Position numbers and translations under genes: made by a program. Positions 2,548 through 41,072 of a stretch of DNA of 64,000 nt are shown one piece after another. The notes under the pieces were generated by a model. It searched no databases. It saw only the letters and a program-made list of their open reading frames with translations, and was not told the origin of the DNA. The stretch is from Sphagnum compactum (taxonomy: Eukaryota): the NCBI GenBank assembly GCA_965153455.1, contig OZ234493.1, positions 2,666,001-2,730,000 on the forward strand. Reading direction: 5' to 3'. Numbering within the stretch: the stretch's first letter is position 1; the number at the start of each line of letters is the position of its first letter.

Positions 2548-3458
2548 CCTTCCTACCAAGATTCCACCTGATCTACTACCCAATTTTGTTGTAGATCTAA
2601 TTAACACTCCCCTTCTAATAACATCTATGATGAGCTCAACAACCGTTTCCACTCCTGTGGTTGTTATACCTACATTAAGTGATTGAGTAATTCTTATTAT
2701 AACATGTTGTCTCCGGGTTTCAATAACTACCGCTTTTGACATTATTGGGGAAGCTGTGTTGACTCGAGATCGACGTCACTCCAGTCTGTCGTTACTCATC
2801 GGTATCCTCTATGGTCTTATTCTTGTTCTTATGGTTGATCTATTAATGCTCTTGCCACATTTTGTAACTCCACATGCCTAACAATATCTTCTTTGATGTG
2901 AAAAGGCACAAATGGACAATCCATGATTGCATGTCTTTCTTCTTCATAGAATCCATAAACCCTTGAAAGGAACCTGATCATCTCTGGATCCACAAACCTT
3001 TGAAAGTAACTTGATCATCTTCGAATCCACATATTCACATAGTAGTGACATACGCTCAATTCGATTCAAACATACGCGTATTATACGTTTTTTTGGGCTT
3101 TTAAAAAAATACGGCCCAAAATACGCAGAGTGGTAAAGGTTATGCAAAGAACCATTACCGGGCCACAAAAACTGCAGTCTGCTAGACTCTACAGTACTTA
3201 ACAACCTAGTTACATTTTCGCCGTCAAAATCGACGATTTCTGCAGCAACAAAATCACCTGTCGACGCCTGATATTCACGGTGCTCATTTCGGAACCCCGC
3301 CAAATATGGACGGTCTAGGATCAAAAGGTTTCGCGGATAAATCTTTTGATTGGCCATGACTCGGATGGCTCAGCCATGACACTAACAGCATTCGGAATCA
3401 GACTGTTGCAACTTGCAAGTCTGGATCTGATACTAAGTAATAATTTCAACTTTCTTTC

Positions 3459-5385
3459 ATGCTACAATCGAGCAGGGCGACCTTTGGAATGGGGAAGGAG
3501 AAAGGACCTGAGTGGACCGAGGTCACCATCCTCCAGGAACCTGAGAAAGCGGGGGGGAACTTTCAAGTCAAGTGTGGGCACTATGAGCTCGTGTTTTGGG
3601 GGGGTGCCACAAGAATCCGGGGCCACTTCTTGGGTCAGGTGGCTTGTGGAGTCAAGAAGTGCACCAAATGCCCCCAAGCCCTCAAAAAACAGCTTCAGGA
3701 TATTGATCAGGCGAAAAGAGAATAGGAAGGTGCAAGATCTGGATGAGGCTGCAGCTGCTCTCCCGCAAGGCCCCACCAAAAAGCAGAGCACTCTCAAAGC
3801 TGCCTTTGGAAAGCAAGATAAGTCTAAAGTAGATGCTCTGTGGGGTCGTGCCTTTTATGGCAATGGTCTTTCTTTCCGCTTGATCAATGACCCTCATTTC
3901 AAGGCAGCCGTTGAAGCTACCGCTGATTTTGGCGAGAACTACAAGTTGCCAAGTCTTGTATCTCTTCGTACCACCCTGTTAGACAAGGAAAAGGTATCGG
4001 TGGCAGCAGAACTCAAGTCATTTATGGCGTCAGCGCGGAGCAACAAGGCAACCATAACCAGTGATGGGTGGTCAGACACTCGGAATAGGCCTCTTCTCAA
4101 TCTTCTGATGGTCACACCCAAGGGTGAGAAGTTTCTTGAGAGTGTAGACACAAGTGGGGATACCAAGGATGCAGACTTCATTGCGCAGGTTGTTGGCAAG
4201 GCAATCGAGGATGTGGGGGCAGAGATTGTGGTCCAGGTGTGCATGGACAGTGCAGCAGTTTGTAAGGCTGTAGGTCGCAAGCTAGAAGCCCGCTTTCCCC
4301 ATATCACATTTACTCCTTGCACCCCGCACTGCCTAGATTTGTTGCTCGAGGACATGGGCAAGCTGGATTGGGTCTCCTCCGTCATAGCCGAGGCAAGAAC
4401 AGCGCTGAAGTTCATCACAAACCATCATAAGAGTCTAGCTCTCTTTAGGAGCCTGTCCAAGCTAGAGCTCTTGAAACCAGGGGAGACCAGATTTGCCACC
4501 AACTTCATCATGCTACAGCGCATGCATGAGGTGAAGGCATCACTGCAGCAGCTTGTGGTCAGCGACGCTTGGGGGGAGTGGAACCAGAAGTCGTCGCATG
4601 AGATGGAGGGAGAGGAGGTGCACGACATCCTGACTTCCGCTGCATTTTGGAAGGGTGTGAAGGAGTTGTTGGCTGTTTCAGAATCGATAGTCTGTTTTTT
4701 GCGCCATTGTGACAAGGGTGTTCCAGTTGTGGGAAAGGTTTACTATGCCATGTTTTTGATTGGCGAAGAGCTGGGGGCGCTCAAGGAAGGAACGAGCAAG
4801 CAGCATCCGGGGGTGAAGCTTTCTGCTGTCAAGTATGAGCAGATCAGCTGGCTTTGGCGCAAGCGCTGGGAATATTTGCATTCAGATATGCACTCGGCTG
4901 GGTTTGTTCTGGAGCCGGAGTTCCATCCAGCAGAATATGGACAGGACCAGAATGCGGAAGTGATGCAAGGGTTTTTGAACATCCTAGAGAAGCTCGTCTC
5001 AGATGCAGACGATCAAGCAAAAGCCCTGCAACAATTGGTGCAGTTTAGAAACCAAGAAGGTTTGTTTGGCAGACCCGGCATTCAAACGGCCATGAGAGCG
5101 ATGCCCGGGTGGAAATTTTGGCAACAGTGGGGTCAGCAAGTTCCAGAGCTTTAGACAGTAGGCGTGACGGTCCTCAGCCAATGTTCTGCAGCCTCAGCGT
5201 GCGAACGCAATTGGAGCACTTACGATTTCATCCATTCGAAAAAGCGAAACAGGTTGACCCCGCAAAGAGCTCAGGATCTAGTGCATGTCTTCTCGGACCT
5301 GCGCCTAGCACATAAAGTGAACAGCATTGAGTTTGAGGAAGAGATGGTTAGTTGGATGGAAGAAGAAGAGCCAAACGACGATTAG
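3459..5385 (+). pseudogene. hAT transposase pseudogene (BED finger, DUF659-type core, C-terminal dimerisation region)
   Basis: Near-identical to 29472-31412, but with CAG>TAG at 3723-3725, an adjacent 14-bp frameshifting deletion, CAG>TAG at 5152-5154 and a BED Cys>Tyr change (CGHY). Motifs TSDGWSD, CTPHCLDLLLED, TRFAT and CERNWS are present. Confidence 0.93.
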
Positions 5386-5600
5386 AGCGGGAACAAGAAG
5401 GGGACGCGATGCACTTCTATAAAAGGTGAGCTTACGTGATCATCGTTGTCTTTGTTCACTGTTTCGGAAGTAGGTGTAAAATTGTGTCAAATGTTTTTGA
5501 TCATCTTTGAAACCAATTGCAAGCTCGACAAGGACCAGACCCTAAAACTAGTGTGTAGTTTTATTCAAGGTATGCCTATGCTCAAGCTGGTTAAGAAGGG

Positions 5601-5842
5601 TTTGGGCACAACTTAAGCTCAGCTTGCTCAGCGTTTTGCTCATCGTATGTTACTGAGCTGATGTCTGCTCAAAATGGTCACAGATTTGGGCACAACTTCA
5701 GTTCAGCTTGCTCAGCGTTTTGTTAATCGTATGTTACTGAGCTGATGTCTGCTCAAGATGGTCACAGCTTTGGGCACAACTTAAGCTCAGCTTGCTCAGC
5801 GCTTTGCTCATCATATGTTACTGAGCTGGTGTCTGCTCAAAA
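5601..5842. repeat. Tandem repeat, ~3 x 84 bp, in the 3' part of hAT copy 1
   Basis: TTTGGGCACAACTT recurs at 5601, 5685 and 5769; each unit contains CTCAGCTTGCTCAGC...TTACTGAGCTG. Confidence 0.9.
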
Positions 5843-6824
5843 TACTTGAAAATACTTCTTTTTGAGCACCTTCGAAAAATACGGGTATTTCGTATGTCAC
5901 TACTATGCATATTCATGATCCTTTATTTCGGTAGTGTACCTTGGTTGTTCCAATTTTGGATTTCCTTGATGTGAATATGATTATAGTACTTCATTCAACG
6001 CATTCACTTGTGCCTTTGCATATTCAGATGATCTTGGGTAATTTTCCTCAGTTTTTTTAAACACATCAACATTGGTGTTTTCATCCACCTCCTAGTGTTC
6101 CATTGGTTCATAGTAATCTAGCAATGCAGATTGATACACAAACCTGGGTTGTATACTTCCTGTAACATCCTTCCTTCAGTTAGTCATTGATTTTGGACTT
6201 GAGACTTCTTACGGTTGATCAGGTACTATAAAAATTCATGTTCTGTTTTGATCTTTACAATTTGAACCGCAGATTGCAACTAAGAAGTATACTACATGTG
6301 CTCATTCGGATGAGTAATCGATTACATCTCTCTGTGTGGAGATTGTTGTATGGAATTATGCCTTCTCTAAAAACCCCTAGCCCATACGTTTCACCGTACC
6401 ACTTCTTGTGGTGGAATCAACTTGTGCTTCGTAGGCCTTTTTTTTGTTCTCAAAACTCGTCTATCTAACACCAGATTTTGAGATGGGGTTTCTGTAAGCC
6501 CTACATATTCCTCTCCATTTTCGAAATTATTTTTTGTTTATTTTTCAATAACTTACCAATTTGCCTCCAAGTCCAATTGTCACTGTAAATTCCGAGCCAC
6601 CATTCGATTCATCTTGTTTCATAATTTTTCGTCTTCAAAGTCTGTAGATCATTCTGTAGTCCTTATGGTGTCAACCTCGTAGACCTTTGATACTTTCTAA
6701 CATACCCTTTAAAATTCTAAATTAAAAAAACAACAATATTCGTCTGGACACTTTCATCTATAGAATACAACAAAATTTGTAGAAAACCTTCCTATTACTG
6801 AAAGAAAAAACAGAGAAAATTTTT

Positions 6825-21762: not shown

Positions 21763-23937
21763 ATTTAAAATTTAAGCTAGTTGTAATTTAGAATGTATTT
21801 GGTTGAACTATTTATTATCTCCTTAAATGGTGCACATTGAATGTTTTCATACATGATGCACATAAAGGCAAAGTTGAATGGACCAAAATGTGACAAGGAA
21901 AAACATATATTTAAATACATTTTCTTTGTATTTTTTATTCATGAATTTAATAAGGGATAATAATGTAACTCCAATTCAATCATGTAATCCATCTCTATGA
22001 TTTGCGTGAAAGTTCAATATCTTGCATTAATGAGTCAAAGATAAATACATTTGCACATAGGTGTTGTCTAAATTATTCACAAATTTCATAAGTTGATGTC
22101 CGTGTCAAGATTATATAAAATAACACATAATAAAGTTAAAATATAATATATTTGAAAATATGTTTGGGTAATGTTTTTAAGGTCACTAGCACCTCAAATA
22201 TTAAAAGTCTATTTATGATTTATTATGTTTATATTCTATTGTCTATTGTCAAAAAATGCCCATGCAAGTTGCTATTCCACCAAAAATAGAGGATTTTAAA
22301 TATCAATGTTTGAAAAATAATAATAAAGAGGGGGTCGAAAGGTGTCTTTTTGAATTTGTCTTTTCAAAAAAAAATCAACACCATAGTCATAATTAGATTT
22401 CTAATACCTTTTGTACCAATTTGCATCCCACTTCTCTTTGATTCACTTTTATAAAACTTGTCTCCAATCCACCCAACATTCCATTCAAGTTCCACTAGAA
22501 ATGGGCAACTCCACCAAAGTGGAAGTGCTTGGGAAAAACCCCACTAATATTCCACTATGCACAAACCCATTCCATTGAAATCCACTCTTGTCCACTTGCG
22601 AACCAACATATTCACTATTAATACCAAAATATTACTTACAATAATATGTATAATGGATTCCAATGAAATTTAAAATAGTTCATTGACTTTAGCTTAGTCC
22701 ATTACTATTGCATTAATGTTTGGTGGAACGTAGGGAAATGTAGTGAACTTTGGTTTAGTGGATTCTAGCTAGTGAATATTTATTATCTAGCGGGTACAAC
22801 ATAGTGTACAAAGGGATGTGGACTTCAACATATGCGTCAAACCTAGCTAATGGTTTTGGATCAACTAGTGATCAATCCCCAATTTAATCATATTTGGAGT
22901 TCTCCAATAGTGATCATCAGCATTTCAATTCCACTAGAATAATTCATTAGTAGAATTCATATGTGCATGGACCAATATTGACTACCTAACATATGTACAC
23001 TAAGAGATATAAACTAAAATGGTGTGCAATGGAAATGCAATCGCATTGATTTGAGACATTTTATTCCTTTGCAACTAAAGTTCACATCTTGAACATGGAT
23101 GAAAAACGCAACACATTCTTTCTAGCAATGTTATATTAGTACCTAATAACTATGTCATGCACTTATTCATCAAAACATTATAGCATAAATTTTTAACCTC
23201 TATGCGATAGTGGTAGACAAAGTAATGGTGTAGGCATATGAACAACCATCCATAGGATCACCAAAACAATTGGTGGTGGAATATGCCACTGCTAGGTGGA
23301 AGATTTGTCAGTGGGTGTAGTGGAATCTTAGTGGCCAAGGCACAAGAATAATTTGTTTTTTACAGTTAAATTTTGGTTTTTTTCTTTCCCTTCAATCAAT
23401 GTTTCCATGAGGCCCAATGGAATTAACCCATGTGATTTATTGGGCCCACATTGCATGTTTTAAGCAAAAGTTGGACCAAGATATTCTCAATTGTTGTGCA
23501 TGCAATTCACACTCCATTATGGATTTTGCACCCCCTTAATTAATATTTTGATCATTTGTTATTTGTTGTTTGATTTTAAAGTGTTGAAAGCCGGTTATGT
23601 GCATTTCACAACTTCCAATGTAATCCAAATGCATGGAATACACATTAGTGTTGTGCATGTAAATGGTTTGAGATTTACACTCCATGTAAATGTGGGGTAA
23701 ATACATTTCAAGGTATTAGAACTGACGTCATTAAGCAAATAAACACAAACTACGCACCTTTTTCAATTGGGGTTCATTGCATGGTTCATAAATGTAATCT
23801 TGCATTCAAGACATTGTTTACCTCGGGAATAATTAATAGCATTGAAGGTTTGCTACAGAACTGCCATGCATATTTTGTTCACAACCCAAAGAGGCACATT
23901 GACATGATGGAAACAAAAGGGCTTAAAATGCTCAAAA

Positions 23938-26900
23938 CGCTAGTAGAAAACCCCCCTTTTTCAACCAAAAGTTTTCAACTACATGACATTTGCAACTATG
24001 TTTCAAGTAGATTTTTAAAAATTTTTAAAATAGAAATATGGCAATTACCAATTAAGTTGATTCGTTTACTATATTAGTATGTCGTTGAAAGCATTTTTCA
24101 ACTGTGTGGTCATTTGTCGAATATTCTTGGCATCTAAAGTTCTTTAATTGGCGCATAGTCAAGACATTGACTAATGTTCAACTATTTTGGATGATAAAAT
24201 GTACTAAAGGATGGATGAAATATAGTCTTGTTTGCAACTATCTCTTTCAACTAGGTTAAACAATTAATAGGCAATTTTAATTTTATACATGTAATATTAT
24301 AATATTTATTTAAAATCATGATAACATTAAACTACGTGTAAAATATTTTTTATAAATGAATGGTTTTTTTTGTGCATATAAATATTAAACTTTAATTTCA
24401 AAATAAAGTTTAATTTTTTAAAAAATGTTAGTACTAATGTTTATGTTCAATACACATGTAATTTATTATTTTTATGTAAATCATTACAACATATCAAGTA
24501 ATGATATATAATTAATAATATTGTGCGACTATAATGTTTATTCATTTTTATACACATGATATCTTAATATTTGTTTAAAATTATGATAAAAACTCATTAA
24601 ACATTAATGTACCCTATGTCACTAGCCCAAGTTTGAATGCATTCAACTGAATTTTCCTTCCAAATCCCTTTTTACAATTTGTTTGAATTTCCAACAACAA
24701 TACGTACCCACCAAAAATTCAATAATAATGTTCAAATTTTAGGTCTCAAAATTACGAAATCAACTTTATTAAATCGAACTTGGTGAGGGCTTTCAAACAA
24801 TACCAAGAACGCCCCCAAGTTCCAATATAGTTTTCAATTTTGGTCTTTCAAAAAATTCAATGAAAAAATGGTTCAATACTCAATAAATTCCACACTGTAG
24901 TTCCAAACATTTAAAACCAAGTCATTGCACCCTTATTCATTGAAAAGTTTTTGATGACAAGTTCCATAACATAACCTAAGACATTGTGGTTTGGGAAATA
25001 TCATTATGACAAAACAAAACAAACTACCTTCCTTCATGGATAAATAAGGTAACATGTGTTGTTGGCCCCAAATGTGAACACACTCAATTCATTTTCCCTT
25101 GTAAACCCAATTTGTTCTAATTTGTTTGAATTTTTAACAACAAAACTAATTCAAAATTCAATATCTTCCACACCTTAAATATGAAAATTATGAAATAAAT
25201 TTCATTAAATCTAACTTAGCGATTATTTTCCACTAAATACACCTTTGGATTCCAGTAAATTTTTTATTTTTGATGTTTATTAAGAAAATGGTTCAGTATT
25301 CAATAACCTTTGCGTTGTAACTACAAAACATTTCAACCCAAGTCAGCGCACCCCTATTCATTGTTAGGTTTTCAAAGATATCAATAGCATTATATGAAGT
25401 AATTTGGTTTAGGAAATATCAACAAGATAGAATAAAACAAAACAAATTATCTACCTTCATTAATAGATTAAATTATGTGTAAATTATCTTTGTATAAAAT
25501 GAATGGTTATGTATGATGCAAATATTTTTTGTGCACACAAATAATAAAATTTTATTGAAGGAAATTGAATGAAATTTTGAAATATAAATTTGTAATAATG
25601 TGCATGTTCAATACACCTAATTATTATTTATATGTAAATTGGATTTTAGTTTACAACATATCAAATAATGATACATAATTAATATTTTTTGTGGAAATTT
25701 AATGTTTATTAATCTTTATAGACATGATATCTCAATAGTTTCTTTAAATTGCAATAAAAATTCATTAAACATTAAATTACATGTAAATTCCATTTGTGGA
25801 AATGAATGCTTATGTATGATGCAATTTGTTTTTGTGCATATAAATATTAAAATTTAATTTCAAAATAAAATTTAAGCAAATTTTGAAATATGAATTTGTA
25901 ATAATGTAAGTTCAATATATGTAATTTATTATTTCTGTGTAAATCAAATGTTAATCTACAACAAATCAAGTAATGATACATAATTCATAACTTTTTGGAA
26001 CTTTAATGTTTATTCATTTTTATATGTGTGATGTCTTAATATATATTTTAAATTACAATAAAGATTCATTAATTATTAAGGTAAACAAATGTTTTTTGTA
26101 TCCATGAATGATTACATGTATGAAGAATTTTTTTGTGCATGTAAATATTACACTTTAATTTGAAAATAAAATTTAAAGAAATTCTGAAATATAAGTCAAC
26201 TTAATATGTGTATGTTCAATACATGCATAATTTATAATTTCTATGTAAATTCAATTTTAATTTTCAACATATCAAGTAAGGATATTTAGTGTGTAATTTA
26301 TTATTTCCATGTAGATTCAATTTTAATTTACAGCATATCATGTAATGATACATAATTAATAACTTTCAAAATTTTAATTTTAATTTTAATTTTTGCTATT
26401 AGTTCCAATAAGTTTTTCATCTATTAAATTTATTTATTTATTTATTTATGATTCAACTATAATAATTTTTAGAATAATTAGTAAATATATTTAATAAATT
26501 ATCATGTAATTTCAAATATTATTTTATTTAACACTATGATACTATAATTTTTTTTTTCATATTTAATATTTATTATACTAAGTCATTTAATAGTTCCAAC
26601 AAGTTAGATAAAAATATGAAAAAAAATAGTTAAATAACTAGCCTAACCTAATTACTAGTTACAATATTATTAATATTAATATTATAATTGTAGTCAATTA
26701 TTAATTATCACAACATTATAATGATTATTGTAACTAAAATATCATATAAAATCTATTATTGAATAATATATTTGAGTTAATTCTTTGTTTTATTAAATGT
26801 TAAAAAGAATTTATAATGAATTTTGAACTAAAAAATTCAGTGATAATTAATTACTTAATAAATAAATACATTTAATTTTCTGATTTTTCAAAAAAAAACT

Positions 26901-28559: not shown

Positions 28560-29471
28560 AAATCGTTAAAACGCCCTAGATATCTCTCATGGGTCCTCTA
28601 AGGAACATTTTGTTAAAATTCAAACCAATTCTGGCCAAGATTTCTATGGATAGCAACAACAACAAGCTGCGAAGGTAACTTTTTGCCTTAAACTTCTATA
28701 TGTTTCTTGCATTGTATGTTATTTGTTGTAATGTTTTTGCATTTTCTAATTGATGGTTTGGTTGCATTTGCAAACTAATTTGACCTTACTACATGTTGGG
28801 AATGTGTTACATCATACTTTTGTTGGAAAACATTGATTCTCTTGTGCAATTTACATAGTAGGATGATGTTTTCATATGTGATTTGGTGACTATAGTAAAA
28901 GTTTGCCAGGGTAGCTCTATTTTTGATACAATAATGGCAGTTCTTCATTTTCTAGTGATGAATTTTGGGCATTTAAAGGTTTGTTGGATTAAAGCCATGA
29001 CCACATCCACATGAAGTGGGTGGCAGAATTGAATGACTCTAGTGAACATTGTGCCTTCATTGTGAATGATGATAAACTTTGGGCCATCCACAATGATCCA
29101 ATATTGAATGTTAGGATAGTTGTGACTAAGGATTCTTTTCAAAGTCTAATTTCACAAGTGCAGTCAAAGTGTTCATGTCAGTTTCTAACCTTATTTTCTT
29201 TTTGATTCATCTTGATGTGTTTTGACTTAAGGGTTTTGTTTTCTTTGAAACATAAATTTTAGTTTGGGACTTTGTTTTCTTTCAATCTATGTTGCAACTT
29301 TCCTTTTTTAATATGTCTTTGTTGGTTTGTGGGTGCATCTCATAGTAGTGACATACGAAATACGCGTATTTTTCAAAGGTGCTCAAAAATAAGTATTTTC
29401 AAGTATTTTAAAATTTGAAAATGTGAATACATGAAATACGTGAATACGATGAGCAAAATGCTGTTCCCGCT

Positions 29472-31412
29472 CTAATCGTCGTTTGGCTCTTCTTCTTCCA
29501 TCCAACTAACCATCTCTTCCTCAAACTCAATGCTGTTCACTTTATGTGCTAGGCGCAGGTCCGAGAAGACATGCACTAGATCCTGAGCTCTTTGCGAGGT
29601 CAACCTATTTCGCTTTTTCGAATGGATGAAATCGTAAGTGCTGCAGTTGCGTTCGCACGCTGAGGCTGCAGAACATTGGCTGAGGACCGTCACGCCTACT
29701 GTCTGAAGCTTTGGAACTTGCTGACCCCACTGCTGCCAAAATTTCCACCCGGGCATCGCTCTCATGGCCGTTTGAATGTCGGGTCTGCCAAACAAACCTT
29801 CCTGGTTTCTAAACTGCGCCAATTGCTGCAGGACTTTTGCTTGATCGTCTACATTTGGGACGAGCTTCTCTAGGATGTTCAAAAACCCTTGCATCACTTC
29901 CGCATTCTGGTCCTGTCCATATTCTGCTGACTGGAACTCCGACTCCAGAACAAACCCAGCCGAGTGCATATCTGAATGCAAGTATTCCCAGCACTTGCGC
30001 CAAAGCCAGCTGATCTGCTCATACTTGACAGCAGAAAGCTTCACCCCCGGATGCTGCTCGCTGGTTCCCTCCTTGAGCGCCCCCAGCTCCTCACCAATCA
30101 AGAACATGGCATAGTAAACCTTTCCCACAACTGGAACACCCTTGTCACACTGGCGCAAAAGGCAGACTATCGATTCTGAAACAGCCAACAACTCCTTCAC
30201 ACCCTTCCAAAACGCAGCGGAAGTCAGGATGTCGTGCACCTCCTCTCCCTCCATCTCATGTGACGACTTCTGGTTCCACTCCCCCCAAGCGTCGCTGACC
30301 ACAAGCTGCTGCAGTGATGCCTTCACCTCATGCATGCGCTGTAGCATGATGAAGTTGGTGGCAAATCTGGTCTCCCCTGGTTTCAAGAGCTCTAGCTTGG
30401 ACAGGCTCCTAAAGAGAGCTAGACTCTTATGATGGTTTGTGATGAACTTCAGCGCTGTTCTTGCCTTGGCTATGACGGAGGAGACCCAATCCAGCTTGCC
30501 CATGTCCTCGAGCAACAGATCTAGGCAGTGCGGGGTGCAAGGAGTAAATGTGATATGGGGAAAGTGGACCTCTAGCTTGCGACCTGCAGCCTTGCAAACT
30601 GCTGCACTGTCCATGCACACCTGGACCACAATCTCTACCCCCACATCCTCGATTGCCTTGCCAACAACCTGCGCAATGAAGTCTGCATCCTTGGTATCCC
30701 CACTTGTGTCTACACTCTCAAGAAACTTCTCGCCCTTGGGTGTGACCATCAGAAGATTGAGAAGAGGCCTATTCTGAGTGTCTGACCACCCATCGCTGGT
30801 TATGGTTGCCTTGCTGCTCCGCGCTGACGCCATAAATGATTTGAGTTCTACTGCCACTGATACCTTTTCCTTGTCTAGCAGGGTGGTACGAAGAGATATA
30901 AGACTCGGCAACTTGTAGTTCTCGCCAAAATCAGCAGTAGCTTCAACGGCTGCCTTGAAATGAGGGTCATTGATCAGGCGGAAAGAAAGACCATTGCCAT
31001 AAAAGGCACGACCCCACAGAGCATCTACTTTAGACTTATCTTGCTTTCCAAAGGCAACTTTGAGAATGCTCTGCTTTTTGGTGGGGCCTTGCGGGAGAGC
31101 AGCTACAGCCTCATCCAGATCTTGCACCTTCCGTTTTTGCGTTTCCTGTTCTCTTTTCGCCTGATCAATATCTTGAAGCTGTTTTTTGAGGGCTTGGGGG
31201 CATTTGGTGCACTTCTTGACTCCACAAGCCACCTGACCCAAGAAGTGGCCCCGGATTCTTGTGGCACCCCCCCAAAACACGAGCTGACAGTGCCCACACT
31301 TGACTTGAAAGTTCCCCCCCGCTTTCTTAGGTTCCTGGAGGATGGTGACCTCGGTCCACTCGGGTCCTTTCTCCTTCCCCATTCCAAAGGTCGCCCTGCT
31401 CAATTGTAGCAT
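29472..31412 (-). CDS. hAT transposase, uninterrupted 646-aa ORF (real start may be the second Met, MGKEKG)
   Basis: BED finger (W...VKCGHC...RIRGHF...C); DDE candidates TSDGWSD, CMDSAA and CERN; CxxH (CTPHC); C-terminal dimerisation region; no stops. ERNWS is changed to ERNCS. Confidence 0.92.
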   Translation of the reverse strand: MLQLSRATFGMGKEKGPEWTEVTILQEPKKAGGNFQVKCGHCQLVFWGGATRIRGHFLGQVACGVKKCTKCPQALKKQLQDIDQAKREQETQKRKVQDLDEAVAALPQGPTKKQSILKVAFGKQDKSKVDALWGRAFYGNGLSFRLINDPHFKAAVEATADFGENYKLPSLISLRTTLLDKEKVSVAVELKSFMASARSSKATITSDGWSDTQNRPLLNLLMVTPKGEKFLESVDTSGDTKDADFIAQVVGKAIEDVGVEIVVQVCMDSAAVCKAAGRKLEVHFPHITFTPCTPHCLDLLLEDMGKLDWVSSVIAKARTALKFITNHHKSLALFRSLSKLELLKPGETRFATNFIMLQRMHEVKASLQQLVVSDAWGEWNQKSSHEMEGEEVHDILTSAAFWKGVKELLAVSESIVCLLRQCDKGVPVVGKVYYAMFLIGEELGALKEGTSEQHPGVKLSAVKYEQISWLWRKCWEYLHSDMHSAGFVLESEFQSAEYGQDQNAEVMQGFLNILEKLVPNVDDQAKVLQQLAQFRNQEGLFGRPDIQTAMRAMPGWKFWQQWGQQVPKLQTVGVTVLSQCSAASACERNCSTYDFIHSKKRNRLTSQRAQDLVHVFSDLRLAHKVNSIEFEEEMVSWMEEEEPNDD

Positions 31413-31634
31413 GAAAGAAAGTTGAAGTTATTACTTAGTATCAGATCCAGACTTGCAAGTTGCAACAGTCTGATTCCGAATGCTGTCAGTGTCATGGCTG
31501 AGCCATCCGAGTCATGGCCAATCAAAAGATGGCCAATCTTTCTTAAGAGACTCTGATTAGTGCCAAAGAGAATGTCTTATCAGGAGGGGAAGGAGAGAGA
31601 GACAGAGATAGAGAGTGACAGAGAGCAGGAAGAA

Positions 31635-34500
31635 TCAAACTAGCTCTTCTTCCAAGAGGGTATGCTTTAGTGCTTCATAGCACATGAAGGAGAGACCTGC
31701 TGCTGGCATGAGCTTAAGGCAACTGGGGCCTAAACCTCTATACAAACCCTTCAAGCCTCGCTCTTTTGCAATTCCCCTAAGTGCATTTAATGTGCCTTTA
31801 TACACTACCCTCCCCTTCAATGCCCCTACCTGCACAAAAGAATCAAACCCCAAAGTTTCAGCATAATGTCTCTTAGGTGGAAGGTGATAACCCCAAATTG
31901 TTTTCTAGTTTTCCAACCTGAGCAGTTCTCTGTTCTTTGCACCTTCCAGAAGGTCCTATAAAAGACTCATCCACTCCTTGGCTTGTTTTCTCTCTAGGGA
32001 ACAGATGTTCAAAGGACATGACTTCCTGTTTGAGTTTCAATTTTGAGGTACTAACCCATACAGATCACATTTTCAGAGCTTTGCTTTGATCCCCAAAACT
32101 GTTCCATGAATTTTGCTTGGTTGTAATAAACAAGCTAGGCCTTGAATCGAAGCACCATCCATGAAACAAATCACGCTAGAAACAAGGTTCATTCAAACAT
32201 ACACATGTGGAAAGGGATTAGGGTTCTAAGGTTGATGAAGCAATACATGTTCACAGGGTGGATATGGATGACTCCAAAATGCTTGAGATCTTAGGTTATA
32301 AAAAATCTTTGATGAAATTGATGTGACACACATGATTTGTTGAGGCTGTAGTAGAGTCTAATTGTGGAAGATGGGGTCAGTGTAGAGATCTTGACCTGCA
32401 TGTGCTTGCGCGCCACTTCTAGAGGAAATGTGCTCGTGCTGGCTATTGCTCCAGCAAGCGAGCCAATCAGCAATGTCTGTATGTTCCCAACCCTGTCTGT
32501 CTTACTGCATCTCTTGTAAAGAGAACGTAATGAACCATACACAAAATAGTTGACACCAGCATACGGGGTCACCCCAATGACACTTGGAGCAAGGCCTCGA
32601 TAAAGCTCCAAAACACCTTCTTCAGATACTATCCTCCAAAGAGCATGCAAAATGCCTCGATACTCATCAGGCTGATTGATCACAAAACCAAAAGAGATTT
32701 CAGTTCAATTTCCTTCCATGAGAAATTGTGTTTGTTGAACCCTTTAAGACTTCTTCAAGCAACATGTTTTTCTCTTTCTGCTTTTGCCTATGTTGTTCAG
32801 ATCTAAGGGTTCCATGTTTGAGGGTAACAATTCAGCACACCAATGCTGTTGAGATTTCATTGCTATATTTTATGTGTTCTAGGGATTCCATGTATAAGGT
32901 CATGGGCATCACTGAATCCCTGATGTTCTTTTGAGAGATTTAAACTTTGGGCAAGTTTTCAAACCAGCAAGTTGGAAACACTATGAATTGGAAAATACCT
33001 ACCTGAATTGTGAGGCGAGTTTTGAGAAGCTCAAGTGGGTACATACACACAGTTGATGAAATGCCCGCACAGGAGCCTGCAATTGGTGATACTGGCAGAA
33101 ATGCAAGCTTGCCTGGTGTCCCGTCCTTTGGACTCAGGTATGCCTTCACAAAATCATATGCAAAGAGCTGCAAAGAACATATTAAGGCACAATCTCCCAT
33201 CAGAAGCTCCACTTTTGTTCAAGAGAAAAGAAAACAAACAGAGGTACAATCTCCAATCAGAAACTCAACTTTTGTTCAGAAGAAAAACACAAACAGATCC
33301 AGTTAGGGTTAGGAAGCTCAACTTTTGTTCAGAAGGAAAACAAACAAACAGATCCAGATAGCTTTTGCCTGCCCAAATTAGGTCAACTAGAAATGAGAAG
33401 CCACCCCCAGTGAATCTTCATTGAGGGGAGTCAGTTTTTCATTGCCTGATTATGGTGATCTAGCATGCGGGATCACACAAGATCACACATGTTATGTGGC
33501 AAAACAAGATTCAACAAGACTGAAAAATGTGGAATACACTTCCAAAAATACCGAAGATTACTGATAGGTACATACCTTGCTCTTCTGTTTTGGAACCAGA
33601 CTTCCACTTGCCGAGGTCGCAAGTTTAGTTGCTTTGCCAAGGCGCTCTTTTGCTTCTGCAGAGGGGAGCCAGCCACACAGATATCATCAGAAATAAGCAG
33701 CAGAAGAAACGGTACAGAACCGACAATGACCTAAAGGAAAAACTCTGGACAAGAATCATGAGAGCGGCAGCAGAAGAGAGTCGGACATCCTTGTTCATAC
33801 CGGGTTAAGAGTGCTATGATCTTTGAAGCTTTCTTCTAGGAGAGCTGATTGTTCTTTGGAGAGACGAAGCTTCTTCCTCGTGGTTCCTCCTCCTCCCTCG
33901 TCTTCATCATCGCTACAACCTCTGGAGCTCAGATCGCACGCTCTTTCCCGATCCAGCAGCTGTTCGAACAACTGATCGTGCTGCTGAAGATGCCAACAGC
34001 AAAGGAGTTGAAAAACTACAAAGGAAGAAAAACTCTGCCAGATCTGAAGCTCACCCAAGAAAAAAATTTGTGAAAAACGTGAAGAAATGCGGTTTGCAAT
34101 CTCGAGCTTGCTTGCTTGCTTTGATCGTGGGTGAATACTTGTTTGAAGCTTTTCACTGGGGAATAGAAGTAATGAGAGAGAGAGAGAGAGAGTAACAATA
34201 ACACTAACCTCGATGGCTTTGCTGGGGGCGACGCGAATGACATTGATGGCGTTGCCACGGAAAAGCCCAGGCCATCCTTCGTTGGTGATGATCCAGTGAA
34301 AGATTTCAGGGAGCGAATGGCCATGGCTGCCAACCATCAAATGCGTGCGGATGGTCTCGACTCTCCAATGGTGCCATTGCAATTCTTGAGAAAGCTCCAG
34401 CTATGGCTCTGCTCAGTAACCTTCTGCCGTTGGGCCCTAGTTTCAGCTTGAAGCTCGATTTTCTTCTTCTCTCTTGTGCAGCTTGTTCTCTCTCACCCAT
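31635..34500 (-). pseudogene. BT1: Captured mitochondrial-carrier-family gene, BRITTLE1-type adenine nucleotide transporter; exons 34500-34209, 33167-33003, 32671-32396, 31829-31635
   Basis: Three carrier signatures ([32 protein letters not shown]) plus [25 protein letters not shown] and LGPSCLKLMPAAGLSFMCYE. Phase-0 GT-AG introns. A 7-bp insertion near 34356-34362 frameshifts exon 1. Confidence 0.9.
33576..33983 (-). pseudogene. Captured HD-Zip class II homeobox fragment, two exons (~33983-33801 and 33655-33576)
   Basis: [38 protein letters not shown], then a GT..AG intron, then the 80-bp exon [27 protein letters not shown] followed by GTATGT. No leucine-zipper/CPSCE exon follows. Confidence 0.93.
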
Positions 34501-37500
34501 TGCTATTGTGTCTTCAGAGTCCTGTTCTGAATCGTCGATTTTGGCGGCGAAAATGTAACTAGGTTGTTAACTACTGTAGAGTCTAGCAGACTGCAGTTTT
34601 TGCGGCCCGGTAACGGTTCTTTGCATAACCTTTATCACTCTGCGTATTTTGGGCCGTATTTTTGAAAAAAAACAAAAAAAACGTATAATACGCGTATGTT
34701 TGAATCGAATTGAGCGTATGTCACTACTATGGTGCATCTGCCTTGCTTTCAATGTGTGTTGCTGTTTGTAACATTTTTTTTTTTCAATTTTTTTTGTTAG
34801 TTTACAGTTGCATCTACCCAACTAATCAAAGAGTTGGACAACCGCTTCCCCTAGCGTGCCTTGCTCAATGCCATGGGCATTGTATGTCCACAGTACTAGT
34901 TGCAGCCCAATTATGATGATAGTTTTACCAAGCATTTGGAAGTATGAAAGTTTGGTACTGTGATCCAAAACTCTTGGGGTTTGGAGGTTCAAGTTCATTG
35001 GTTGCACCATTGCTTGATTGTTGGGGGCTAGATGCGCATAGCAAGGGATGTTCAAATTGTGTATGGAAAACAATTTTAAGGCTGCCATGGAACCACCTTT
35101 TGATTTGAATCCATTGATTCGAATTTGGAAGACAATTGATGCATCTTAAGTTTTCATGCATTCTAGAGTATTTTAAGTTGGTAAAAATGGCCATAGTCCA
35201 TGTTAAAGGGAGTGTAGAAAATGAGAGATGTTTTTCATTTCTTGCATGTCGTAAGAACAAGTTGCGAGTACTTTAGATCCTCACCTTCCTCTTGTTGTTA
35301 GCATGTATAACCAAAAGTTTTTTTTTACTTTAAAAAGTTTTTTTGTACATTGCCACATTTGATGCTTGGATTAGAGCAATTGATCGTTACAGTATTCTTG
35401 CGTAAATGACATTTTGTTCTAACATTTCTAGAAATGCATAGTTCTTGCCTTCCATACTTTTATGACTTTGTTCACCCTGGCAATAGCTTCATGTTCTTTG
35501 TTGGCCTAGGCCTTTTGTTTCTAGCATCTTAGTATGTTTAGTGAACCATTTGAAGATATGGAAATTTGTGGTCTTGGTTTGAAACTTTATTTTCAATGAG
35601 AGTTTTTTTCAATGAACATTGTTTGATAAGTAGTTTGCTTCTCACTCACAAGGCAATGGAGCCAACAACATCACATCCTAAATCTAGACAGTAGCCTTAA
35701 GTCTATATTAAAATGTTGATTGTCGCCATTATTGGCATGTTTCGAATTCCCTTTGATAGCCATTACCTTTCATTTGCAACATACAAATTATTGCCAATAT
35801 CTTGCATTTTTCAGCATATGCGCGCCACCTCCTTTAAATAATATTAAAAAAGTATTGCCACTTGGATTGTGGAATCCAGGGCTCCTGAAGTGATGTGGGC
35901 ACTTTATGAAAAACCAAGAAAAAAAAGGGCTGGAAGAGAGTACTCTAAGTTCCATCAAAGAAAGAAAGACCCGTGGGACTTGAATCATGGTGTGGTTGTG
36001 AGAGACTTATTCCACTTTGCATAGTTGTGGTATTCTTCTCTATCCTAGAAAGACCATAAGGCCCATGAGAATGCTTGTTTTTTCTTATGTATTCCTTTTC
36101 ATTCTTTTAATGATTGTTGAAGCACCAGCTAAGTACCATCAATGATGAATACTACCCATTGCCCACAAAATGAGTCTATGAAGAAGATGATGGCACCATT
36201 TGACCACCATTGGGAAAATAAATCAATTGACAAAATAGTTTGATTGGTGGTCTGTCGTGAAGATGGTCCCATGGGACCACCATTTTGAGGATTGTAACCT
36301 ATTTGGGTGCATTATTCTCACGCACTTTTTCAGGCTTTTTCCTAAGTAGGACAGGTAGTCAGTCATCTACTGGTTCCATTTTTGGAAGAGTCGGTTTTAC
36401 TCGGAATGTGAATTCTTAGAGAACAATGTTGTGCCATCATTTGAATTTTTAAAGTATAGGGTAAGTCCCCTGCTGTTAAGGATTTACGTGGCATAACAAA
36501 CCGAGGTGATCAATGCCTTCCAAAATAATTCCCTCCTTCACAGTGATCTGACTGGGTCACATCTTTCACCATAGGGATCTTATAAAATTATGCTATTTGC
36601 CCTAAGGAACATTTCGTAAGCCTAAATTCAAAAAATAATTCACCCTCCAGAGAAAGATTTAGCCAAATTTGACTACAAGCTAAATATGGAAGTAAAACTT
36701 GTAAATATCCTTTTTTTTTTTTTCCCCTACCTACTTGAACCATTTATAGAAATCTGGTGATTTTTCTTCTTTTTTTTTCGAATGCTGGCTATTAAAAATC
36801 TCAAAAGAACTTGATTTCAGCACTTTTTATTTTTAATATAACTGTTTCGCTATTATATATGGCCAAGAAAAAAGAGGCAGGTGCTGATTGTTTTGCCTGA
36901 CATGACATGGAAGGCCCCAACATTATATGTGCACATAGTGATGACGATGATGATGATGATGAAACCCTGCCAAACTTTATAAAAAGAAAGCACCCAAGAA
37001 GGGGGGAGAAAAACAAACAAGGGGCAAGGACAAAAGTCCAGGCAAGCAAACAGCCCAACAAAGGTGGGCCACAAGGAGGAAAGGGCACCACTAAGAATAG
37101 TTGTTATTGCAAGAGTACAAAAGTCTCACCTGCTTCTTTTTTATTCCTGACATGATTTCCTTTCTTGGCAGGGTTTTAGTATTATACCGTAGCCTAGGGT
37201 CAATTTCCACATTGAGAAAACAAATAATTATTATTTTTCCAAAAAAGATTTTAAATTTTTTTTGAAATTATATTATTTTCCATCATCTGCTATAATAATA
37301 TTGTGATATGAGTAGTGAAATTATTCAGAGTGTAGCCTCCGATAATAATTATGATGATTTTCAACATGTCAACTTCATATTTTCACAAGATTTCATTTCA
37401 CTATTTTGAGAATTATATAATGACGAAACTGACCTTAGGGTAAGGTAGGCACATATAATGTTTGGGAGAAACAAGGGGCCCTTTGCTGGCCTTTATGTAC

Positions 37501-37855
37501 TATGTCAGGTGTAGTAGGTTCATCAAGTGATAAGAAGAGGTTTGAGCAGGGCCTGTTCCAGCATGACCAGTATTTGCACCAATGATTCACATCACAGTAG
37601 TGTTCCCTGGACCCTCTAAGATAATAAGTTGGGGGTGCTTATTCATACTTCTAAACCCTAAACAATTTTCAAGTTGTACCCGTAATCATGTTAATCGGAA
37701 TTTTTTATATTAGTTTGATTTATTCAGTTGCCCGAGCTCTCTGCTCAAGTCTCAGCTCGCTGCTTTGGCGAGATGATCTTCGCAATGCATCTAGTTACAC
37801 TCCTGTATATGGTCATTCTTTGATTGGGTTGGCAACAGTTTTGGATTGGTGACAT

Positions 37856-40800
37856 ATGTTTATCACATCAGCGATGGCTTGCAGTCCAGGTGTAGATATG
37901 GTAGCGTTTGGTAGTGGTCTGAGGTACATAAGTTTTGGGCACACGAGAGCACTTGGGTATGCATCTAACGTGTTTGTCGTGTTCTTGGTTGTGAGTTCTC
38001 TGCCTGCAGTGCTCACAAGAAGTCTTCAAGGCTGCTTATCACAGTGTGGGAACGTCGCAATCCCGTATCCATTTGGCACCAGTCCGGGATGTGGCCTGCC
38101 GGAGTTTTCTTTGAATTGCAGCAGCGATGGATGGTGGGCAAATGCGGTGCTGCTGCTTGCGCCCCCCTGTGGTCGCTCTGGCAACTTTATCCAGGTCACA
38201 AGCATCTCAGCCAACACACTCATCATCAGCGCGATTCGCCTTGTAACTTTCTCCTGTGACCCAACCCTTGGTTCCGGAAATGCAACGAGCGCTTGTCTCG
38301 GTCCAGCTTCAGCGCCTTATGTTTTTACACCGCAGAATAATTTATTTGCAGGGGGTTGCGGCGCATGGGGCGAGTTATATGGTGACGATGAATTTGTTGG
38401 CCGGTGCTCGACTCAAGGATGTAATAGTACCGGTCAAAATGAAATAACCGACTGTACCACACCACAATTTCCCAAAGGTGTGCGCAACATCACGATTTAT
38501 GGAGGAGGCAACTGTGGATGGGCCAGCGTGATCTACCCGCCTACTTATGACGGGGGAGTATGGGGAGCTCAGTTGGGATGGGCCATTCCTGGACCGAGTT
38601 GCCAAAACGCGACAACGCTGCCTAACTATTCTTGCGCTGCGATGGCAACCTGCCAGGATGCTCAATTCCCAGGTCTGAGCGGGTACACATGTGCGTGCAA
38701 TGCTGGTTACGATGGGGATGGATACGCGAACGGAATCGGATGTCACGGTAAGCATGACCTCAAGAGCTCGTGCTATTAATGTCCTACTTAGAATTTCATG
38801 CTTTTCGTTTTGGCCATGTCTAGGAGACCATTATTCGACACCTTGCAAATCAAGATTCTATTCAGGGCGTAGAAGGGATGAGCAAACATCTGATAGTTTT
38901 GTGTGAAGATTACCTGAAGTGATGGCCGAAACAAGAACGACACATGTTTCAAACAAATTGTCTTGGTCTTCTTTGCAGTCCTCATTTATTGCTCTCCATC
39001 GACCAATGTGTGCAATTCTTAGCTCGGTCTTGCTTATATGCAATAGTTCGTGCAAGTCTGAGAACTAGCTAGATTGTTAATCAACGTTGTCAAGTCAGCA
39101 GTTCAATAAGTTATCATGCTGGTGTCATGGTGACTCGGACTTGGACATCCCATTCAGTAAACTTTGCCTGAAAGATGTGGTCAACACACAAGTTTGTATA
39201 AAGTGATCTACTGACAAACAAATTTTTTTTTCTTGCAACTGCAGAAATCAACAAATGCTTGAACTCCACATTGAATAATTGTTCTCCAAATGCAATTTGT
39301 ACCAACACGACTGGAGGTTACTATTGTAATTGCACCAACGGATTCTCTGGTGATGGCTCTCATGATGGGACAGGATGTCAATCTATCAGGAAACATAACC
39401 TTTTACTAGTTGCAGGTATTTCACAATGCTACCTGCCATCTAAACAATTGTATAATTTCTAATGTGCAATACCCTTCAAGGTTTTCAACATTTATTGTCA
39501 TTTGATGACTAAGGGGCTATATATACAATCTTTGGATGCAAGAGTGCAAACATTGAAAGACAATTGTCAACTTTGAGAGTTTGACTAAGCTCTAGTTCCA
39601 TCCAAATGAGACAATTACAGTCCTTCCACAATGGATCAAAGTACATACCCAAACATGATTGTTGAGATCATTAACATCGTTTATCAAGTATGAACCATGA
39701 CTAATAGATATTTGTTGCAAAGTTGATCAATACTAGAACCAATTTTGTAATCAATCGTTGTAGTCTTGACTTTGAGGTTTCATTGTGAATCATGATCTTC
39801 TCTAATGTTAATTGTTGTCAATAACCAAAAGATTGTTGTTATGTAATTGTTGTAATGGGTTGCAACTAAAGATAATTGAAATGCATTTTGATCCTAGGAC
39901 TATCGGCAACAACAGCTATACTTGTGGGGCTCGGAGGTGTTCTATTGGCCTTGTTGTGTTGTATCAAAAGAACAAGGAAACATAAGCAATTTGCTCGAAG
40001 AAATTTTGAAGCCTTGGGGAAGCTTCAAGATTTTTTCACCTCATTGACCGATGGTGAATCGAATACAACAACGTTGTTTTCTTTGAAAGAGTTAGAAAAA
40101 GCAACAAATGGATTTTCCGATGACCAAAAGCTTGGTGTTGGAGGATTTGGCACAGTTTATAAAGGCACAATGGAAAGTGGATTGATTGTGGCAGTGAAAA
40201 GGACAAATAAACTAGACACAAGTGGTGCACAACAATTTCTAAATGAAGTGGCCTTGTTATCTCAGGTCAATCATCGTAACCTTGTCCGTCTTCATGGATG
40301 CTGCTTGGAGACAGAAGTACCAATGCTTGTGTATGAATATGTCCCAAATGGAAACCTTAGTGAACATTTACGAGGTGAAAACTCTAGTGAACTTGGACAG
40401 TTGACTTGGCCCAAACGCATGCAAATTGCGATTGAAACTGCAGAGGCCATTACTTACCTCCATTCAGAAGCAAATCCGCCCATATATCATAGGGATGTGA
40501 AATCAGCCAACATATTATTAAACAATAAGTATGGTGTTAAAGTATCAGATTTTGGAATCTCAAAGTTGATCCCATTAGATGCAACCCATGTTTCAACAAT
40601 AGCACAAGGGACACCAGGCTATTGGGACCCTGAGTATTTCCTATCATACCAGTTAACTCACAAAAGTGATGTTTATAGCTTTGGAGTCATTTTGTTGGAA
40701 TTGATAACCTCTCAACCTCCTGTGGACCTCAATCGTGACAAAATGGAAATGAGCCTAGTAGCCATGTGCATTCCTCAAATCAAGGAAGGTAATTTTGAGG

Positions 40801-41072
40801 CAATTGTAGACCCTAAGTTATTATCATCAAATTTTGAAGAAATGGAAACAACTCTACAAGAAATTGAGAAAGTTGCCACTATGGCGATGCATTGTTTGGC
40901 GTTCAAAGGAGATGATCGACCTTCCATGAAACAAGTGACAAAGGTTTTACATCAAATCAAAGGTGATTGTCGATGGAATGAAGGCAAAGGAAACCTTTCA
41001 AGTGAGTTTGGACTTGTTGGGGTCCATGAAATGGAATTGGTTCAATTAATTGATGCAAATATTGCAAATTAA
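37856..41072 (+). CDS. WAK: Wall-associated receptor kinase copy B, apparently intact, ~745 aa; exons 37856-38747, 39245-39415, 39898-41072
   Basis: Exons total 2238 nt in frame with phase-1 GT-AG introns. Hydrophobic signal region, CGNVAIPYPFG, two EGF-like modules, TM segment and a complete RD kinase (GVGGFGTVYKG, VAVK, HRDVKSAN, DFG). The start Met is uncertain. Confidence 0.9.

Follow-up and report, generated by a model that had tools for sequence, protein, structure and literature searches.

A carrier–homeodomain chimera in Sphagnum compactum as probable decaying cargo of a gene-capturing hAT transposon

Introduction

Chimeric open reading frames (ORFs) composed of unrelated gene fragments are familiar from rice Pack-MULEs and maize Helitron cargo; most of them are pseudogenes, and some are transcribed. 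For transposons of the hAT superfamily, which generate target-site duplications of 8 nt according to a passage of PMC8903248, gene capture is described as a rare feature in the part of PMC3260210 that deals with Ds elements containing gene fragments. This article examines a candidate case in a bryophyte. In a stretch of 64,000 nucleotides from Sphagnum compactum (GenBank assembly GCA_965153455.1, contig OZ234493.1, positions 2,666,001 to 2,730,000 of the forward strand; ‘the window’ below, numbered from its first letter), a hAT transposon of 5,391 bp (29341-34731) encloses exons of a BT1-like mitochondrial-carrier gene and of a homeodomain–leucine zipper class II (HD-Zip II) gene, parts of which can be read as one chimeric frame.

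Several described systems resemble this arrangement. In grapevine, Hatvine-6 comprises hAT elements with a transposase gene and genic sequences, including introns and exons, as outlined in a section of PMC2528002. Pack-TYPE transposons, including maize Pack-hAT, are defined as non-autonomous in the passage of PMC8903248 mentioned above. In a fungus, a hAT element captured and amplified histone H3; a section of PMC6710886 reports that the copies were then inactivated by mutations of the C-to-T type, through RIP (repeat-induced point mutation), and that the original histone H3 gene stayed under purifying selection.

A preliminary description of the S. compactum locus, made from its letters, had regarded it as the possible source of a new fusion, an interfering truncated factor or small interfering RNAs. 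The anatomy that it gave was right, but the function that it proposed for a protein is unsupported and unlikely. Instead, the interval is read here, with a probability of about 0.8, as transduplicated and decaying cargo of a transposase-encoding Sphagnum hAT transposon, and a 137-amino-acid (137-aa) ORF within it as a by-product of exon shuffling. Most likely, the 137-aa protein is not made. The evidence that carries this reading comprises the structure of the element, its donors, stepwise capture, multiple insertion sites, neutral decay of the cargo and the donor origin of the RNA reads.

Donors and further copies were surveyed in moss-metagenome contigs; a scan with the 201-aa frame described below gave 80 loci, which were sorted by BLAST against the element. 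Sixteen RNA runs hold part of the stretch, and four of these were mapped to positions 29200-34850 at 90% likeness: X22, a polyA raw-read run of which about 12% was read; X1 and X2, which are sets of metatranscriptome contigs; and X18, which shares the species label of X22 and has an even, DNA-like depth over introns and exons.

A hAT transposon enclosing host genes

The limits of the element, of its captured interval and of a related element in the window are as follows.

29333..29340, no strand: target-site duplication GTGCATCT, left copy, by direct reading; identical to 34732-34739
34732..34739, no strand: target-site duplication GTGCATCT, right copy
29341..29357, plus strand: terminal inverted repeat CATAGTAGTGACATACG, 3′ end of the element in the coding sense; 17 nt, 100% complementary to 34715-34731
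34715..34731, minus strand: terminal inverted repeat, partner of CATAGTAGTGACATACG, 5′ end of the element in the coding sense
29472..31382, minus strand: hAT transposase ORF of 636 aa (ATG 31382, stop codon 29472-29474), with DUF659 and a hAT C-terminal dimerisation region
31531..34530, minus strand: captured host DNA of about 3.0 kb, replacing about 103 bp of transposon backbone
3038..5907, plus strand: cargo-free sibling of the same hAT family, with the same 17-bp ends, an 8-bp duplication (CATATTCA) on both sides and a damaged transposase frame

The 8-bp duplication, the short terminal inverted repeats and a transposase with hAT domains place the element in the hAT superfamily. Pfam finds PF04937 (DUF659) in the transposase with an E-value of 5.9e-43 and PF05699 (hAT dimerisation) marginally, with 21.7 bits compared with a cut-off of 21.4; in a precomputed domain list, both occur in many relatives of the protein. 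Relatives of 620-753 aa align over 99-100% of the ORF (for example P0236, with 707 aa and 63% identity), and the nearest relatives, at 82-95% identity, are truncated frames.

The sibling at 3038-5907 serves as the ‘before capture’ reference. Its identity to the element is 96% in the transposase region (2,069 nt) and 94.6% in the 5′ 202 nt, and its alignment sets the limits of the cargo, since it matches up to 34530 and resumes at 31530. Contigs of X18 leave the stretch at 31530, too, and enter the backbone of the cargo-free form. In the sibling itself, the N-terminal zinc-finger part of the transposase has lost the reading frame, and the part for C-terminal dimerisation is absent or substituted (5395-5839).

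Identical element ends are present at 19 metagenome loci. The 19 loci with the 5′ end show 14 distinct upstream flanks, to which the window site has to be added; this diversity of insertion sites suggests that the cargo-bearing element has been mobile and has moved many times.

The family also includes a miniature derivative, in which the ends 29341-29409 and 34675-34731 are joined via an 11-nt filler, TTTAAAAGCCC, or variants of it; this form is found in X22, X1 and X18. In X18, depth reaches 5,000-6,500 on the element ends and about 400 on the transposase, which points to a very abundant offshoot of the family that resembles a miniature inverted-repeat transposable element. X22 reads on the element ends have the strand opposite to that of the cargo reads. 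One X18 contig (depth 18) joins the left flank at 29246 to the right flank at 34747 and leaves out 5,500 nt, with a joint that does not coincide exactly with the element ends; because it joins these flanks, the insertion site may be empty in the X18 accession.

The cargo and its two donors

The captured DNA consists of a carrier gene with a second gene fragment nested in its first intron. In the following, HD1 and HD2 denote the two homeobox exons.

34209..34500, minus strand: remnant of carrier exon 1; the capture starts at 34530 inside donor exon 1
34355..34361, minus strand: 7-nt insertion that breaks the carrier frame; its placement within a local repeat is ambiguous
33362..33985, minus strand: HD-Zip II fragment of 624 bp, nested in carrier intron 1, without the zipper exon
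33801..33983, minus strand: HD1, encoding the N-terminal arm and helix 1 of the homeodomain after 33 codons of donor upstream coding sequence
33576..33655, minus strand: HD2, encoding the remaining homeodomain to ...WFQNRRA; Pfam Homeodomain, E-value 1.4e-10, profile positions 25-54 of 57
33003..33167, minus strand: carrier exon 2; out of phase after HD2, it reads SSLHMIL and a stop
32396..32671, minus strand: carrier exon 3; Pfam Mito_carr, E-value 3.2e-19; 62-70% identity to flowering-plant BT1 proteins
31635..31829, minus strand: carrier exon 4, which has the native stop codon; the 3′ untranslated region (UTR) after it extends for about 100 nt to 31538

All four carrier exons that encode the repeats are present, and Pfam finds Mito_carr in the frames of exons 1, 2 and 3 and Homeodomain in HD2. 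Three tandem Mito_carr repeats in one frame are not found; the 7-nt insertion breaks the frame. The preliminary description had noted a frameshift in exon 1, and the frame is indeed broken, but by an insertion near 34355-34361 that is private to the window copy: it is absent from all eight other cargo copies that cover exon 1, from the contigs of X1, X2 and X18, and from 7 of 8 X22 raw reads. The ATG at 34500 is an internal Met of the donor carrier. A product from the ATG at 34337, the start chosen in the preliminary description, lacks the first transmembrane helix.

The homeobox piece begins in the middle of an exon and takes in HD1, an intron of 145 nt, HD2 and the first 214 nt of the intron that follows. 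The capture ends there, and the HALZ leucine zipper is not in the cargo; native HD-Zip loci run on to an exon starting GACAAAGCT. The region of the CPSCE motif is likewise not in the cargo. The donor-type protein P0133 contains this motif together with the Pfam domains homeodomain and HALZ (PF02183), which identifies the donor as a member of HD-Zip class II. Helix 3 loses its final residues in the spliced chimera, which has SSLHMIL instead. Sequence and locus alignment bear out two earlier statements, namely that zipperless homeobox exons lie in carrier intron 1 in phase with exon 1, and that the cargo consists of exons of two donor genes; both donor loci were recovered.

Among the metagenome contigs, native carrier genes at four loci (L006, L007, L008 and L025) match only 34530-33986 and 33361-31538, or to 31666 in the case of L006, whose contig ends early. 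These genes are intact, with an omega of 0.06-0.21; transposon ends are absent from them, and upstream they include the long N-terminal coding part seen in P0001, which the cargo lacks. Two further loci, L023 and L024, are spliced native carrier mRNAs. The closest matches of the carrier are Sphagnum proteins, and the flowering-plant proteins that match exon 3 are named BT1 adenine-nucleotide transporters. Native HD-Zip genes, at five loci (L009 and L012-L015), match only 33989-33360, at 96%. Overall, the cargo exons are 96-99% identical to their donors.

The transposon copies themselves fall into several forms. In four of them (L001-L004), the homeobox insert is present and the chimeric arrangement is unbroken. 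Five loci at four distinct sites (L010, L011, L016, L020 and L022, with L010 and L011 representing one site) combine a transposon end, exon 1 and intron 1 without the insert. The transposon 5′ end with only the start of exon 1 is found at 13 of the 80 loci, and 47 of the 80 are HD-Zip paralogues.

In the alignment, a single pair of breakpoints is common to all chimeric copies. The 5′ breakpoint of the homeobox piece lies inside a donor exon (…ATGCTGC/AGCAGCACGAT…), and the TTCAG acceptor is formed by the junction itself. An X2 contig represents the insert-free intron, with 33361 and 33986 connected by 9 other letters. At the 3′ junction, GATTGGCC occurs at the end of the cargo and again 8 nt further on in the backbone, and may be a microhomology used in the capture. 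The similarity of 13 in 15 that links the end of HD1 with the insert-free intron belongs to the intron tandem repeat and was treated as chance.

These forms show that the capture took place in two steps. In the first, the element copied a BT1-like mitochondrial-carrier gene as genomic DNA, introns included, from the middle of exon 1 to the 3′ UTR, without promoter or N-terminal part; the copy lies between the 5′ subterminal region and the transposase gene, in the same orientation. In the second, restricted to one sub-lineage, 624 bp of an HD-Zip class II gene were inserted in carrier intron 1, where the CAG CAG start of the insert, beside the pyrimidine run of the intron, provides a usable-looking acceptor in phase with exon 1. 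Afterwards, forms with and without the homeobox insert both transposed to many sites. Template switching during break repair after excision would fit such a capture, because genomic DNA with introns was taken up and the breakpoints lie inside exons and introns; a passage of PMC3260210 suggests repair-associated template switching for hAT elements.

Other variation within the family concerns the start of the cargo and intron 1. Most cargo-bearing copies in the metagenomes and X18 lack 34478-34635 (158 nt, including the ATG at 34500); the metagenome loci concerned are L002, L004, L005, L017-L019, L021, L026-L028, L031, L035, L037, L039 and L074. These copies have the end variant CCTAGTTGTGACATACG, and the window copy belongs to a sub-lineage with less deletion. 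At the boundary of 34478-34635, a stretch of about 136 nt is duplicated in tandem in L003. Three tandem units of about 54 nt occupy 33176-33339 in carrier intron 1; they also occur in the native gene, in varying number.

The chimeric frame and its splice signals

The frame in question and the splice sites around it are listed here.

33795..34400, minus strand: read-through frame of exon 1, the 225-nt intron and HD1; 201 aa
34209, minus strand: last base of exon 1, donor GAG/GTTAGT, canonical
33983, minus strand: first base of HD1, acceptor TTCAG/CAG, canonical
33801, minus strand: last base of HD1, donor CCG/GTATGA, canonical
33655, minus strand: first base of HD2, acceptor TGCAG/AAG, canonical
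33576, minus strand: last base of HD2, donor AAG/GTATGT, canonical
33167, minus strand: first base of exon 2, acceptor TTGCAG/CTC, canonical

From stop to stop, the frame runs through carrier exon 1 in the true carrier frame, then through the intron (34208-33984) and HD1, and ends 2 codons past the GT of HD1; the ATG at 34337 is the first within it. Direct reading thus confirms the earlier statement that the frame stays open through the 225-nt intron into the homeobox exon, and extends the ORF, given as 33795-34382, to 34400. The splice sites named at that time are all six canonical. Splicing in silico (34337-34209, 33983-33801, 33655-33576 and 33167 onward) yields exactly 137 aa, ending WFQNRRASSLHMIL before the stop, where about 137 had been predicted. 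If the homeobox exons are skipped, the carrier frame is kept and an N-truncated carrier results, again as foreseen.

Only one of the three frames of the 225-nt intron is open. By chance, that frame is open in 2.9% of 20,000 mononucleotide shuffles and in 8.2% of 5,000 dinucleotide shuffles, and the homeobox piece has about 1 chance in 3 of being in phase with it. The combination is mildly unusual but not compelling. Furthermore, the intron frame is already open in a copy without the homeobox insert (P0124), i.e. it was open before the homeobox piece arrived.

Automatic gene models make use of the cargo in S. jensenii, S. balticum and S. tenellum. In P0127 (S. jensenii), an in-frame splice connects exon 1 with HD1. 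P0007 and P0097 include the homeobox exons in another frame, which preserves that of the carrier, and P0002, P0004 and P0010 leave these exons out and represent N-truncated carriers. P0121-P0125 are plain ORF calls on contigs. Both products envisaged in the preliminary description, the fusion (P0127) and the truncated carrier (P0002, P0004 and P0010), therefore exist as automatic models.

A working gene could be built on this anatomy: joining exon 1, HD1, HD2 and exon 2 would give a zipperless homeodomain protein that competes with HD-Zip II factors, or, in a variant of this idea, copies without the 7-nt insertion would yield a carrier–homeodomain fusion. The phase and the splice signals fit, the homeodomain frame of the window copy is intact, an in-frame model from exon 1 to HD1 exists in S. 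jensenii, and the open intron frame has a chance probability of only 3-8%. Its transcript would probably be poorly translatable, however, as a 65-codon ORF from the upstream ATG at 34500 overlaps the ATG at 34337; nonsense-mediated decay would also be expected, given that the stop lies two exon junctions before the transcript end. A zipperless protein could not pair with HD-Zip partners, which makes dominant-negative action by dimerisation unavailable.

Neutral decay of the cargo

Nine cargo copies were compared (the window, L001-L004, L016, L020, L022 and L010), each trimmed to its BLAST-supported range, with the majority ancestor as reference; L011, whose site is that of L010, was excluded, as were the 13 short loci. 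The carrier exons have 99 changes in 4,333 sites (2.28%), versus 101 in 5,767 (1.75%) in the introns; in the homeobox piece, the values are 24 in 1,209 (1.99%) for exons versus 23 in 1,446 (1.59%) for introns. Exons change slightly faster than introns (Fisher p = 0.045). In the carrier frame, 31 synonymous and 67 non-synonymous changes correspond to an omega of 0.70, with 0.06-0.28 for native gene pairs; the homeobox exons have 7 synonymous and 17 non-synonymous changes. A neutral expectation that takes account of the mutation spectrum, derived from the introns, gives a synonymous share of 0.294 for the carrier and 0.317 for the homeobox part; the observed share is 38/122, or 0.311.

All 8 copies that cover exon 1 have a stop or frameshift in the carrier frame. 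The homeodomain frame is interrupted by a stop in 4 of the 4 other copies, with TAA at codon Q44 in L001 and L002 and TAG as the first codon in L003 and L004; L003 has, in addition, the change W48L at the conserved tryptophan of helix 3. The cargo exons are under neutral decay and are not maintained by selection. By the preliminary account itself, neutral decay of the exons together with a lack of junction reads would speak against a working fusion or interfering factor; such decay is what the nine copies display, and the junctions are taken up below.

In the carrier part, 176 of 211 changes (83%) are C>T or G>A; 29 of them are in CpG, 77 in CHG and 70 in CHH contexts, i.e. mostly outside CpG. 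Such a mutation spectrum suggests that the element may be silenced by DNA methylation. It is RIP-like for a plant transposon, presumably as a consequence of methylation in all contexts.

The window copy is the youngest, at about 0.7% from the family consensus, with 7 changes in 921 exon sites and 8 in 1,312 intron sites of the carrier, and 1 in 263 exon sites and 5 in 361 intron sites of the homeobox piece. Its homeodomain frame is intact because the copy is young. The stem branch between the native consensus and the cargo ancestor was rejected as a measure of selection on the cargo, as divergence of other species' native genes enters into it.

Origin of the RNA reads

In X22, depth is about 6-15 on the donor exons, the introns are empty, and the transposase region has a depth of 1-5, with the first mate on the plus strand as on the cargo exons. 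Joints between HD1 and HD2 are found in 8 X22 reads and in contigs of X1 and X2. The joint of exon 2 to exon 3 (33003>32671) is supported by 10 X22 reads, and that of exon 3 to exon 4 by 3 (listed as 31827>32394, with the cut shifted by 2).

The X22 reads stem from the donors. At the donor site of HD2, 29 + 19 X22 reads run into RTKLKQTEVD, i.e. into the zipper exons of two native genes. Diagnostic sites were defined as the 7 positions where the abundant cargo-type contigs of X18 differ from the donor type. X22 reads are of the donor type at each: 15/15 at 34290, 19/19 at 33879, 11/11 at 33123, 17/17 at 33050, 16/16 at 33036, 13/13 at 32535 and 9/9 at 32573. Cargo-type X22 reads number 0 at the 7 sites; letters of the cargo type are, for instance, G at minus-strand 33879 and A at 33036. 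The junctions that the preliminary description had singled out as a check gave a divided result: HD1 to HD2 is present, in a region where the X22 reads carry donor letters; no joint of HD2 to exon 2 reached the listing threshold in the four runs; and the joint of exon 1 to HD1, not listed in the four runs, is uninformative, the repeat at 34165-34209 beside the donor site being masked.

In X18, cargo-type contigs have depths of about 80-130 versus about 10-15 for the donor type, and one contig (record 16) runs from exon 2 through the intron into the homeobox piece; taken together, these observations suggest that the chimeric element is present in several copies in the X18 species but not visibly expressed.

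Three signals were rejected as evidence of expression or origin. The depth on the homeobox exons does not represent expression of the chimera, as the reads enter native zipper exons and carry donor letters. In X1 and X2, the ‘diagnostic’ letters were discarded: X2 record 22, which has the native upstream part of exon 1, has cargo-type letters in exon 2, so that the letters fail to separate donor and cargo in mixed-species samples and structure alone counts there. The very high depth of X1 and X2 in the bin 31468-31656 is due to unrelated reads on a GA-rich microsatellite (loose ends at 31593 and 31625).

Alternative explanations

Several points weigh against reading the interval as decaying cargo without a product. 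X22 is one polyA run from one tissue or condition, read to about 12%, and it perhaps differs in genotype from X18 despite the common species label; the 7-nt insertion of the window is absent in X18, and the X22 letter at 34290 is absent from X18 contigs. The native joint of exon 1 to exon 2 is likewise unlisted, with 34165-34209 masked, despite native reads on both exons. Exon 1, the intron and HD1 are covered without splicing by X1 contig record 7 (33957-34238, depth 21), which implies some RNA of the chimeric element, possibly nascent, or carried-over DNA in an RNA library. If site counts assume equal rates, the synonymous share of 38/122 exceeds the expected 0.238 (binomial p = 0.04); this slight excess could indicate weak constraint, but vanishes under the spectrum-aware expectation. 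Changes common to related copies were counted once per copy, so that the counts are not independent events, and the metagenome contigs are perhaps from several Sphagnum species. An annotation pipeline predicts the in-frame fusion P0127 as a gene in S. jensenii. Finally, both the homeodomain frame and the transposase ORF of the window copy are intact and its ends are perfect, so that by itself it cannot be called dead.

The alternative that survives best, though it is unlikely, is an action at the RNA level: a silenced multi-copy element would make small RNAs that act in trans on the BT1-like and HD-Zip II donors. With an identity of 96-99%, cargo and donors are similar enough for small RNAs to act in trans, several copies per genome are suggested by the depth ratio in X18, and the C>T and G>A changes in CpG (29), CHG (77) and CHH (70) contexts suggest methylation of the element; for other plants, a section of PMC2528002 discusses transcripts with a regulatory role that come from transduplicated fragments. 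However, X22 shows clear expression of both donors, with a depth of about 6-15, and hence no silencing of them in that sample. Moreover, the cargo is in sense orientation, and no antisense signal stands out, with a first-mate-minus depth of 0-2 over the cargo.

Somewhat less probable again is a live, possibly autonomous hAT element that is shuffling exons now, with the chimera expressed in an unsampled tissue or under stress, as protein or as small RNAs. The intact transposase, the perfect ends, the distance of about 0.7% from the consensus and the possibly empty site favour this idea. If it were true, an in-frame carrier–homeodomain gene would have been made, and small RNAs would tune the HD-Zip II and BT1-like donors.

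It is quite improbable that the cargo serves the transposon, either as an intron-rich 5′ leader that tunes the transposase or as gene-like DNA that steers insertion or evades silencing. In all copies seen, the cargo lies upstream of the transposase ORF in the same orientation; cargo copies have spread to at least 14 flanks among the metagenome loci in addition to the window; and the window copy with cargo keeps its transposase ORF, whereas the cargo-free sibling does not. On the other hand, no promoter was captured, the start being inside donor exon 1, and a leader of about 1 kb that is spliced and contains upstream ORFs should reduce transposase translation. The cargo also decays freely, and X18 depth is about three times higher on the transposase than on the cargo, which indicates that most family members are without cargo.

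The working gene is the least probable of all, given the homeodomain stops in all four other copies, together with W48L in one of them, exon rates not below intron rates with the synonymous share at its neutral value, the 0 cargo-type reads at 7 sites and the unlisted joint of HD2 to exon 2, an upstream ORF that overlaps the start, a stop upstream of two exon junctions with the expected consequences, and the want of a zipper for dominant-negative dimerisation.

Neighbouring features in the window

Beside the element, 37853-41072 on the plus strand holds a gene for a wall-associated-kinase-like receptor kinase; according to Pfam, its first ORF has GUB_WAK_bind and an EGF-like match, and its second a protein kinase domain. 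An open frame of 142 aa at 23649-24077 (plus strand), without a Pfam match at E 0.01, resembles in sequence a piece of a hAT transposase from another family.

Significance and comparison with known systems

One genus here shows a series of captures by a cut-and-paste transposon, from backbone to backbone with one gene, and on to a second gene nested in an intron of the first. The series is unusually complete, and both donor genes are in hand. A full-text literature search found no report of gene capture by hAT elements in Sphagnum or other bryophytes. For published Sphagnum genomes, a correction is implied: at least six models annotated as ‘unnamed protein product’ (P0002, P0004, P0007, P0010, P0097 and P0127) correspond to decaying transposon cargo, not to carrier or homeodomain genes. 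In general, an in-frame chimera in one young copy is no evidence of a new gene.

In having chimeric ORFs, the element is like Pack-MULEs and Helitrons; it belongs to another superfamily and differs in its capture mechanism. With Pack-hAT and Ds elements, as far as these are covered in the passages of PMC8903248 and PMC3260210, it shares fragments of one or more host genes between hAT ends (here carrier 34530-31538 and HD-Zip 33985-33362), 8-bp duplications, and a cargo that can merge into transcripts or gene models. Unlike Pack-TYPE transposons as defined in the passage of PMC8903248, it has a full-length transposase ORF of 636 aa; it works like a Pack element but falls outside the definition.

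The fungal histone H3 element, in the section of PMC6710886 that describes it, is similar in being a complete hAT with captured host coding sequence, many copies and C-to-T decay. In Sphagnum, however, the spectrum would fit deamination of methylated cytosines, and the cargo consists of two genes with introns in place of one intact small gene.

Along with the fungal element, the nearest likeness is Hatvine-6 as characterised in the section of PMC2528002: it and the Sphagnum element are both hAT elements with a transposase gene and terminal inverted repeats shared across the family, variable internal genomic DNA from host genes, and amplified copies. This likeness is one of description. The Sphagnum element differs in its bryophyte host, in that both donors and the capture intermediates were recovered, and in a second capture that is nested, in phase, in an intron of the first.

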